Below, piece after piece: positions 29,090 through 29,753 of a stretch of DNA of 64,000 bases. Numbering within the stretch: position 1 is the first letter of the stretch; each line of letters starts with the position of its first letter. The DNA is taken from the IMG/VR virus record IMGVR_UViG_3300028653_000010; one strand, 5' to 3'. The position numbers and the translations under genes were made by a program. Source of the stretch: a virus. Under the pieces are notes generated by a model. It was not told the origin of the DNA and made no database searches. It saw nothing but the letters and a program-made list of their open reading frames with translations.

Positions 29090-29095
29090 GCCTCC

Positions 29096-29124
29096 TATTA
29101 CGCACCACTCGCTCTGATCTCAAC
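29096..29124 (-). promoter_or_regulatory. consensus leaderless promoter
   Basis: tattacgcaccactcgctctgatctcaac. Confidence 0.5.
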
Positions 29125-29311
29125 AAGAATTGATACTTCTGATGTAGGCATAGTATCTGTTCATACTTTTACGGGCACGAACGTCACCGATAACTACATG
29201 TGGTTTGGACAATACTTCAGAGCGGTATCGTCACGAACCGATACTCTGCCTACATATCCAACCCTAACCCGGCGCTCCGCGCCTAGTTCTGGTGTGACTA
29301 TCCTACCTCAA

Positions 29312-29376
29312 CACTTTACACAGTGAATCACAAGGCGCCAGAGGCGCAGTGTCACTTCCTTGTGTGATTCACTGTG
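29312..29376. repeat. inverted repeat (acagtgaatcacaagg ... ccttgtgtgattcactgt) within the divergent intergenic region
   Basis: Read directly from the sequence. TGAAT-containing short repeats lie nearby. Confidence 0.7.
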
Positions 29377-29565
29377 AATGTGAATGGTGCTGCACTGAAC
29401 TCACATGAATTGCAAGACAACTGTGTGTGGGGGCTGCAGGTAGGTGTGTAATCCATCACAGGTCACTTGTGCGAAGCACCGTGAATTGTGTGGTATTATA
29501 GTGTGTGTAGTTATTTAGGAAAATTGGGCCGGGTGGGTTTGGTATTTGCGGCGGTTGTCCGTCTG

Positions 29566-29742
29566 TTCAGCCTGCCACTTTCCGTGTACCACACTTGGAA
29601 TGTACCACACGGAAAGTGGGAGGCTGGCTGGAAGGCCCGCCACTTTCCGTGTGGTACATTCCAAGTACTTGATATTACTAACCTATTAGCGTGGTACAAA
29701 GAATGAGGCGGGCCAGGCGTCCGCCCTGCCACTTTCCGGTGT
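29566..29742. repeat. three copies of an ~18-bp iteron-like motif (c)tgccactttccg(g)tgt(a/g)(c/g)taca in direct and inverted orientation
   Basis: Copies lie near 29569-29590, 29633-29655 and 29724-29745. The first two form a larger palindrome. Confidence 0.6.
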
Positions 29743-29753
29743 ACCACAGAGGG

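Follow-up and report, generated by a model that had tools for sequence, protein, structure and literature searches.

What does the long gap at 29090-29753 do in the 64,000-nucleotide stretch of viral DNA analysed here (IMG/VR record IMGVR_UViG_3300028653_000010; hereafter the window), where it separates the minus-strand gene g130 (28697-29089) from a rightward open reading frame (ORF) with a GIY-YIG domain? An earlier note on this DNA had described it as an origin or operator cluster from which transcription diverges, lying where leftward gene blocks give way to rightward ones. We find that the gap consists of a promoter, a conserved non-coding core and an array of five alternating repeat units, and that the gene on its right encodes, in addition to the GIY-YIG nuclease domain, a predicted ribbon-helix-helix (RHH) domain that had been overlooked. 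The operator part of the earlier proposal is borne out by a leftward promoter-like box at the left edge of the gap, by the array abutting the gene for the DNA-binding (RHH) domain, and by the lineage-specific arrays that precede RHH genes in all relatives; the iteron-origin part is not. The strand switch at the gap is only local: on its left is a leftward operon of four genes (27588-29089), on its right a single rightward gene, and many other strand switches occur within the window.

The array lies directly upstream of the nuclease gene (Table 1). Three copies of its motif had been reported; the motif is present beyond chance expectation, but there are five units, two minus-strand copies having been missed. 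Exact or near-exact copies of ctgccactttccgtgt / GCCACTTTCCGTGT lie at 29574(+), 29607-29620(-), 29639(+) and 29728(+), and nothing closer than 3 mismatches is found elsewhere in the window. The unit pairs U2/U3 and U4/U5 make palindromes, and the nested palindromes noticed earlier are the pairs 29568-87/29607-26 (95% complementary) and 29593-29624/29635-29666 (94%, 27 perfect pairs). The copy said to sit right before the GIY-YIG gene is U5, the end of which is 6 nt from the ATG at 29754. A scan of the gap for consensus sigma-70 promoters and terminators, Rfam families and tRNA or tmRNA genes returned nothing that explains the region, the Rfam output being limited to miRNA-precursor matches far below threshold that are caused by the palindromes. 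The heptamer GTACCAC at first appeared to be a site dispersed through the genome (26 vs 7 copies); outside the array, 21 copies compare with 15.3 expected under an order-2 Markov model, and this candidate was dropped.

If the repeats serve the virus, they should be found in its relatives, and they are. We compared seven loci in which the nuclease is present (the window, L010, L021, L028, L029, L031 and L032). Alternating orientation of a shared unit is common to them, and the unit, its + - + - + order and its spacings recur in the six loci other than the window, the order and spacings being held despite diverged spacer sequence. L010, L021, L029 and L032 have the same order and centre-to-centre distances as the window (34-36 bp within pairs, 53-56 bp between them), while L028 has four units and L031 three, both with 36-bp pairs. 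In the fusion loci the last unit stops just short of the start codon, and the stretch from U4 through U5 to the start can be aligned across all seven. Within the unit, the outer part xxACCAC varies with the type of RHH domain encoded downstream and the inner part CTGCCWCWTTCC is common to all fusion loci. We infer from this division that the unit is bipartite, with the RHH domain on the outer part and the nuclease domain or linker over the inner CTGCCWCWTTCC.

The centre of the U2/U3 palindrome is itself variable. Contig L003 equals the window over 4.6 kb save at 29620-29639, where it carries the exact reverse complement, and the palindrome centres of L010 and L021 are oriented as in L003. The likeliest cause of this flip/flop is that the perfect 27-bp arms recombined or that the template was switched between them; an assembly artefact is the lesser possibility. 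Hairpin-loop inversions are template-switch events at quasi-palindromes, described from chloroplast spacers and from E. coli. The window resembles them in the short spacer between perfect inverted arms and in the occurrence of both orientations in near-identical genomes; it differs from the known cases in that the inversion lies inside a presumed protein-binding phage palindrome and is documented by one contig. A recombinase-driven invertible switch was considered and rejected, the inverted segment being only 20 nt long and the neighbouring genes containing no recombinase domain.

The protein encoded downstream is a likely candidate to occupy these units. Gene callers start it at ATG 29703, a start that we rejected since it lies inside U4 and the resulting 17-codon extension shows mostly non-synonymous changes between relatives; all fused homologues align from M-P-x-Y-G-I, which identifies ATG 29754 as the real start. 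The N-terminal domain matches Pfam GIY-YIG (PF01541, E 2.7e-8, passing the cutoff), PHROG homing endonuclease families (E 5e-14) and an NCBIfam group I intron endonuclease family (E 2.7e-8, under the family cutoff). Compared by eye with I-TevI, the catalytic residues are intact (two Tyr, R30, H34, E76 and N93) and the motifs GIIY, VYIG, RWAGH, AERDAI and GYNI can be aligned. Small RHH-only proteins of the relatives match 30093-30482 in tblastn and align there, terminal peptide DDMSWLDEMTFDLG included; because they correspond to the C-terminal half of the window protein, the latter is a GIY-YIG::RHH fusion. The RHH signal itself consists of sub-threshold NikA-like Pfam matches in five of seven family members (best E 2e-5) together with a predicted strand (residues 120-124) and two predicted helices (126-138 and 143-158) in a low-confidence AlphaFold model (mean predicted local distance difference test score, pLDDT, 47.7). 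Neither the fusion protein nor an RHH profile gave a meaningful match in sequence searches of the PDB, the ubiquitin matches being an artefact.

At least 12 fusion proteins, or 13 if one truncated copy is included, and several RHH-only proteins came out of an exhaustive HMMER search and a word-based one. Identity among the nuclease domains is 69-89%; the fused RHH domains share 27-59% identity across types and interleave with those of the RHH-only proteins. As similar nuclease domains are attached to divergent RHH domains, one nuclease lineage has been combined with several RHH lineages. No description of a GIY-YIG/RHH fusion was found in the literature. A truncated fusion gene, P0024 (L032 10001-10435, on a 465-kb contig), ends after the linker at 144 aa, with the nuclease domain intact, the RHH part out of frame and the contig end about 700 nt past the gene; it is possibly a decaying copy or the product of a sequencing frameshift.

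The related loci were reached through homologues of g130, and more were added by pattern searches. They follow one plan, in which a common core is succeeded by a lineage-specific repeat array (Table 1) and then by either an RHH-only gene or a GIY-YIG::RHH fusion, an RHH-domain gene being found after the array in every locus that extends far enough. Two comparisons separate the parts of this plan: L014 and L019 have cores that are 98% identical and yet differ in their arrays and in their RHH domains (32% identity), whereas L015 and L019 have cores only 65% identical and share the array unit and nearly the same RHH domain (90%). Likewise, L013 and L031 share a core and carry different cassettes. 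In these sequences the array type thus goes with the RHH type and not with the core. The type B fusion locus L028 points the same way: its units carry GGACCAC, a half-site also present in the RHH-only loci L015 and L019, and the closest relatives of its RHH domain are those of L015 and L019 (59-63%). The border of cassette exchange is at the right end of the core, at about 29547-29567. Loci with and without the nuclease module have the core and the RHH family in common. A search of viral contigs with the array motif for an empty-site allele of the same array type gave six single chance matches and no related locus, and a DNA-pattern scan of metagenomes added only two new loci. The noteworthy result of this work, in our view, is the family of GIY-YIG::RHH fusions and the alternating array cognate to it, which lie downstream of the conserved core at a hot spot of cassette exchange.

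The core is the constant piece of this mosaic, as the genes on its left differ between lineages as well. In every relative it lies just upstream of the repeat array and RHH gene, and 29263-29555 is conserved in all loci found via g130 (sensitive blastn). Its hairpins are kept by compensatory changes (ACA/TGT to ACG/CGT; GCGCC/GGCGC to GCCCC/GGGGC; and the series GTGC/GCAC to GCGC/GCGC to GCAC/GTGC), and both G-U pairs and the consensus energy favour the + strand (-32.5 vs -20.4 kcal/mol). It is single-copy in the window and matches no Rfam family. A coding role was rejected on account of the lack of 3-nt periodicity and the many single-nt gaps. The inverted repeat reported earlier lies within it, with perfect 14-nt arms (29319-29332 / 29363-29376) that can be lengthened, allowing a 2-nt bulge, to 19 nt of which about 17 match; elsewhere in the 64 kb its motif has only chance-level matches with 3 mismatches. 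The short GTGAAT repeats reported earlier are clustered here, with 5 of the 29 copies in the window falling within 29323-29486 (about 0.08 expected per 165-nt stretch), their window-wide total not being enriched. We tentatively favour a role of the core in expressing the rightward cassette, as promoter region or as leader RNA, the alternative being an origin. Conserved as it is among neighbouring genes that are nearly all orphans, this non-coding element of about 310 nt is a candidate for a key cis element of the phage group, whether as promoter region, leader RNA or origin.

Table 1. Positions of the features of the gap and its two flanking genes in the window, with the repeat units of related loci
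Feature	Position	Strand	Remarks
g130	28697..29089	-	ORF and gene calls; first gene of four-gene leftward operon
Leftward promoter-like box	29096..29123	-	TTGAGA, 17 nt, CGTAATA, 6 nt to g130 ATG
Inverted pair ATGTAGGCA(T/G)AGTATC	29142-62 and 29235-55 (29142..29255)	.	21 nt, 90% complementary
Non-coding core, ~310 nt	29256..29567	+	alignable in 10 lineages, 55-98% identity
Hairpin H1	29266-88		in core
Hairpin H2	29319-64		in core; alternative perfect inverted repeat reaches 29376
Hairpin H3	29458-89		in core; GAA, GGAA or GAAA loops
G+T-rich tract	29380-29560		in core
Terminal box GGTTTGGTATTTGCGG	29536-51		in core
Array, five ~22-nt units	29572..29748	.	C(C/T)NCC(A/T)C(A/T)TTCC..GT(GTACCAC or GTGGTAC)
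Unit U1	29572-93	+	
Unit U2	29602-23	-	
Unit U3	29635-57	+	
Unit U4	29690-711	-	
Unit U5	29726-48	+	ends 6 nt before start codon 29754
U2/U3 palindrome centre, 20 nt	29620..29639	.	both orientations in population
GIY-YIG::RHH fusion gene	29754..30485	+	243 aa
GIY-YIG nuclease domain	aa 1-97 (29754-30044)	+	
Linker	aa 98-115	+	18 aa, Gly-rich
RHH domain	aa 116-160 (30099-30233)	+	
Disordered stretch	after RHH domain, before C-terminal peptide		acidic, Pro-rich
Conserved C-terminal peptide DDMSWLDEMTFDLG	aa 230-243 (30441-30482)	+	
Array of L006			AGTGATATACAA, 6 copies
Array of L014			GGCTGTGGCCTCATAGGCTCT, 3 copies
Array of L015			25-bp unit, 6 copies
Array of L019			ATGTAGTTTTTCGTGGTCC, 4 direct copies and inverted copies
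Array of L020			CCGGCCACGGCC, 3 copies
Array of L012			GGCCGTAGCACGGAC

The arrangement is best accounted for, in our opinion and with a confidence only slightly better than even, by a composite control locus of three modules in which the array would be the operator or docking array of the downstream fusion protein and would serve its autoregulation. A standard leftward phage promoter would drive a probably leaderless g130 mRNA; the single-copy core would provide, at its right end, the border where array-plus-gene cassettes are swapped between phages; and the five alternating units would dock the protein encoded directly downstream. RHH dimers may recognise the outer xxACCAC of each unit, with cooperative occupancy of the 36-bp palindromic pairs U2/U3 and U4/U5, and occupancy reaching so close to the start codon would switch off the protein's own expression. 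The fusion protein would bind its own units without cutting them, as I-TevI does at its operator, and the conserved C-terminal peptide could recruit a partner common to all cassette types. Binding and repression are what we infer here; the nuclease may cut these units, or else its cleavage may be confined to related arrays in rival phages.

Known systems offer precedents for parts of this proposal. Arc, Mnt, CopG, omega and ParR all silence their own expression at repeat operators. The resemblance of the window to the RHH repressors (Arc and Mnt of P22, CopG, and omega of pSM19035) lies in a small, here predicted, strand-helix-helix binder encoded right after an array of short repeats, and in direct and inverted repeats that overlap the gene's own expression signals; unlike them, the window protein has a long disordered linker, a conserved C-terminal peptide and a nuclease fusion, and its similarity to a known family is sub-threshold (NikA-like). 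As in the arc-ant region of P22, the gene that follows in L014 and, by eye, in L019 is related N-terminally to the P22 antirepressor. In L014 (2769-3509) this gene joins the P22 antirepressor N-terminal domain (P22_AR_N) to a T5orf172/MUG113 domain according to Pfam, the latter being one that we take to be related to GIY-YIG, and in L019 the region similar by eye to the antirepressor-like N-terminus begins at about 2105 on the reverse strand. A T5orf172 protein is also found in L032 (2804-3709), some 6 kb from the core.

I-TevI and the phage GIY-YIG homing endonucleases (of the T4 td intron; Seg proteins) share with the window protein an N-terminal catalytic domain, a linker and a separate C-terminal DNA-binding module, as well as, apparently, a gene that is present or absent among otherwise related phage loci. 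I-TevI is a GIY-YIG endonuclease that represses its own gene at an operator which it binds but barely cuts (PMC2988022), and the window would be alike in having a predicted binding site upstream of the endonuclease gene. The differences are that the window protein has a predicted dimeric RHH domain and a long tail in place of a zinc finger, minor-groove helix and helix-turn-helix (HTH); that its linker measures about 18 aa, as against 75 aa in I-TevI; that there is no intron at the window locus and a five-unit alternating array replaces the single operator; and that in relatives the DNA-binding module is also found at this locus as a gene of its own. Finally, the specificity cassettes of lambdoid phages (immunity regions; O protein with ori iterons) are similar in that a binder and its cognate repeats are exchanged as a block with the exchange border in a conserved flank (L014 vs L019; L013 vs L031), although the flank is here a structured non-coding core of about 310 nt and the binder an RHH domain.

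Several observations weigh against autoregulation through the array. Array and RHH gene are adjacent, and their covariation would also follow from simple inheritance as a single block. The inner CTGCCWCWTTCC and about 110 nt from U4 to the ATG can be aligned across fusion loci with very different RHH types, and part of each unit thus tracks the nuclease module and not the RHH domain. The promoter scan found no convincing rightward promoter, and the RHH assignment derives from sub-threshold Pfam matches and predicted secondary structure (pLDDT 47.7). Moreover, strong single-strand folding and some paired changes in U4/U5 fit control at the RNA level equally well. In such a scheme, which we consider rather unlikely as the chief explanation and which may coexist with protein binding, the units would form a long 5' leader of the endonuclease gene whose mutually exclusive hairpins (U1:U2, U2:U3, U3:U4 and U4:U5), together with a small hairpin in which GGUGU pairs with the start codon, control translation or attenuate transcription. 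Folded as a single strand, 29540-29770 indeed reaches -114.7 kcal/mol (z = -7.3 vs shuffles); the consensus fold of the seven fused loci retains the U4:U5 stem, both partners having changed in three of its pairs; it also retains a hairpin of 7 pairs that covers the start codon, each pair surviving in 5 to 7 of the 7 sequences; and the G-U pairs of the core favour the + strand. T4 homing endonuclease genes, moreover, are controlled in translation by hairpins that hide the ribosome-binding site (PMC2988022). However, paired units in other loci are two sub-variants with about 70% match (L029), so perfect pairing is not kept, and all five units of a lineage share lineage-specific changes, as concerted evolution of protein sites would give. 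The arrays of the RHH-only loci L014 and L015 are purely direct repeats, unable to form such hairpins, and neither a terminator-like U-tract (in the scan) nor an Rfam family was found. Both the direct repeats of the RHH-only relatives and the incomplete pairing seen in fusion loci other than the window argue that the hairpins are not the primary constraint.

An origin of replication made of the core and the protein-bound array, with the RHH protein as organiser through a partner-binding C-terminal peptide, appears less probable still. It would draw on a core that is G-rich on the non-template strand with stable GNA-loop hairpins, that switches sharply to a G+T-rich strand at 29380-29560, and that stays single-copy and conserved while genes on both sides are swapped; on the conservation of the RHH tail across cassette types; and on the cumulative GC-skew minimum of the window, which lies at 28-30 kb, the skew passing near 29-30 kb from negative to about +0.1 to +0.23, with a left-negative, right-positive skew around the core in most relatives (L010, at +0.06 on the left, is the exception). 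Yet the skew is confounded with gene direction and is near zero from 21 to 28 kb, the region contains no DnaA box (TTATCCACA, up to 1 mismatch) and no clearly AT-rich unwinding element (lowest GC 0.37-0.40 in 60-nt windows), and no Rep-type initiator, helicase or primase domain is recognisable in the neighbouring genes. Iteron origins and ParR/parC centromeres do resemble the locus in that repeated putative protein sites adjoin the gene of the binding protein, but the alternating orientation of the units and the want of an initiator, a partner NTPase gene, a DnaA box or an AT-rich element set it apart from both. A partition site is highly improbable. In that case an RHH adaptor resembling ParR, ParG or omega would sit on a centromere of the parC or parH type and contact a segregation motor through its C-terminal peptide. 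In its favour, the array lies directly upstream of an RHH gene, arrays reach six or more repeats, the RHH signal is NikA-like, and the protein combines a long disordered linker with a conserved terminal peptide. Against it, no ParA, ParM or tubulin-type NTPase gene adjoins the array in any locus examined, precomputed Pfam and our own scans revealed no partner ParM or ParA gene in the window or in 10 related loci, the locus is part of very large, lytic-looking phages and not of plasmids, and a nuclease fusion is hard to square with a segregation adaptor. Chance repeats or an assembly artefact we give almost no credence. The flip variant occurs in one MEGAHIT contig only, and when a small-k assembly graph is traversed, the centre of a palindrome can come out inverted; the motif, on the other hand, is unique, the same architecture appears in independent assemblies from several studies and assemblers, and the repeats are far above shuffle expectation, which refutes chance as far as the repeats are concerned.

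The autoregulatory reading leaves room for a further and more speculative extension, which we put forward as possible though doubtful: the GIY-YIG domain and the upstream unit array may constitute a mobile, re-targetable homing system that drives cassette exchange between giant phages. In-frame insertion of the nuclease module before a resident RHH repressor gene would borrow the DNA specificity of the repressor, and operator arrays of rival phages with the same specificity would become the target for cleavage and homing, while gene conversion would use the core as its left homology arm. The protein's own bipartite units would be bound and left uncut, leading to autorepression. If the model of the control locus holds, the fusion represents a previously undescribed GIY-YIG endonuclease architecture. 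It would show a way for a selfish nuclease to gain new targets, by fusing to whichever repressor occupies a conserved locus, and would account for the recombination hot spot found here among uncultivated giant phages. An I-TevI-like nuclease head and RHH domains that have short repeat sites are, in addition, attractive parts for engineered nucleases.

The left side of the gap is built differently. No 7-mer of the window exceeds expectation more strongly than the CGTAATA of the promoter-like box (24 copies vs 2.4 expected). TTGAG(A/T) precedes 17 of these copies, and each of the 17 is followed, at a distance of exactly 6 nt, by a start codon. These 17 sites, with the general form TTGAG(A/T)-N17/18-(GCG)CGTAATA, are mostly on the minus strand (for example 1779(-), 7143(-), 16568(-), 17126(-), 17839(+), 22717(-), 29102(-), 42676(-) and 50490(-)), and the fixed distance suggests a class of leaderless transcripts. 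The box is the only part of the gap that recurs at other intergenic sites in the window; both of its hexamers are kept in all relatives and the spacer between them varies. Between box and core lies an inverted pair of which TGTAGGCA motif copies recur in relatives; ATGTAGGCA as a recurrent genome-wide signal was rejected on a motif search.

The product of g130 contains no domain known to Pfam, PHROG or NCBIfam, and as a protein query it matched nothing in viral contigs. Its homologues in the related loci are 54-75% identical, and the left gene varies by lineage between a g130 type, a 76-aa type and an HNH-like type (L021, by eye), L014, L020 and L021 having an unrelated gene in its place. In L006 (3668-6369) three tandem g130 paralogues, 41-54% identical to the window protein, adjoin the core. 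In L021 (3901-4425, 7264-8250 and 10265-10690) an HNH-like endonuclease gene, recognised by eye and without a Pfam match, replaces both g130 and the leftward promoter, with one AcrVA2-like and one Thg1-like gene located a few kb away.

Contigs L004 and L005, one an ENA and the other a JGI assembly, stop at the identical base (window 29539), 29 nt before the first repeat unit, and the contigs of several other relatives stop no more than about 100 nt past the core. Cassette polymorphism or loss of coverage at the palindrome is the likely cause, and a physical DNA end is conceivable.

The window as a whole has about 52% G+C, almost all of its ORFs are orphans, and its DNA resembles that of no deposited phage. 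Several metagenome studies have yielded contigs identical or related to it, one relative lying on a 465-kb contig, and the lineage is thus one of uncultivated giant phages. A CRISPR array at 45207-46478 has 18 repeats of 36 nt with spacers of 35-38 nt (one of 18 nt), and the spacers match neither the fetched loci of relatives nor the rest of the window. Beside it, at 46686-49264 (-), are ORFs of 236 aa and 619 aa, the C-terminal part of the latter having a TnpB/Cas12-type match (NCBIfam guided_TnpB, E 3.7e-7, below cutoff) and a zinc ribbon; together they make a candidate compact Cas12-like system in a giant phage. The ORF at 19204-20004(+) bears weak signatures of sigma-70 region 2, region 4 and HTH (Pfam, PHROG), and its product is possibly a phage-encoded sigma factor. 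Lastly, a C-terminal peptide RVSRY(E/N)R(E/D)PVI is shared by the otherwise unrelated ORFs 33848-34387(+), 34507-35040(+), 54779-55174(+) and 55167-55502(-), and by four consecutive ORFs of L014 (3521-5620), and may represent a shared targeting, packaging or degradation tag.

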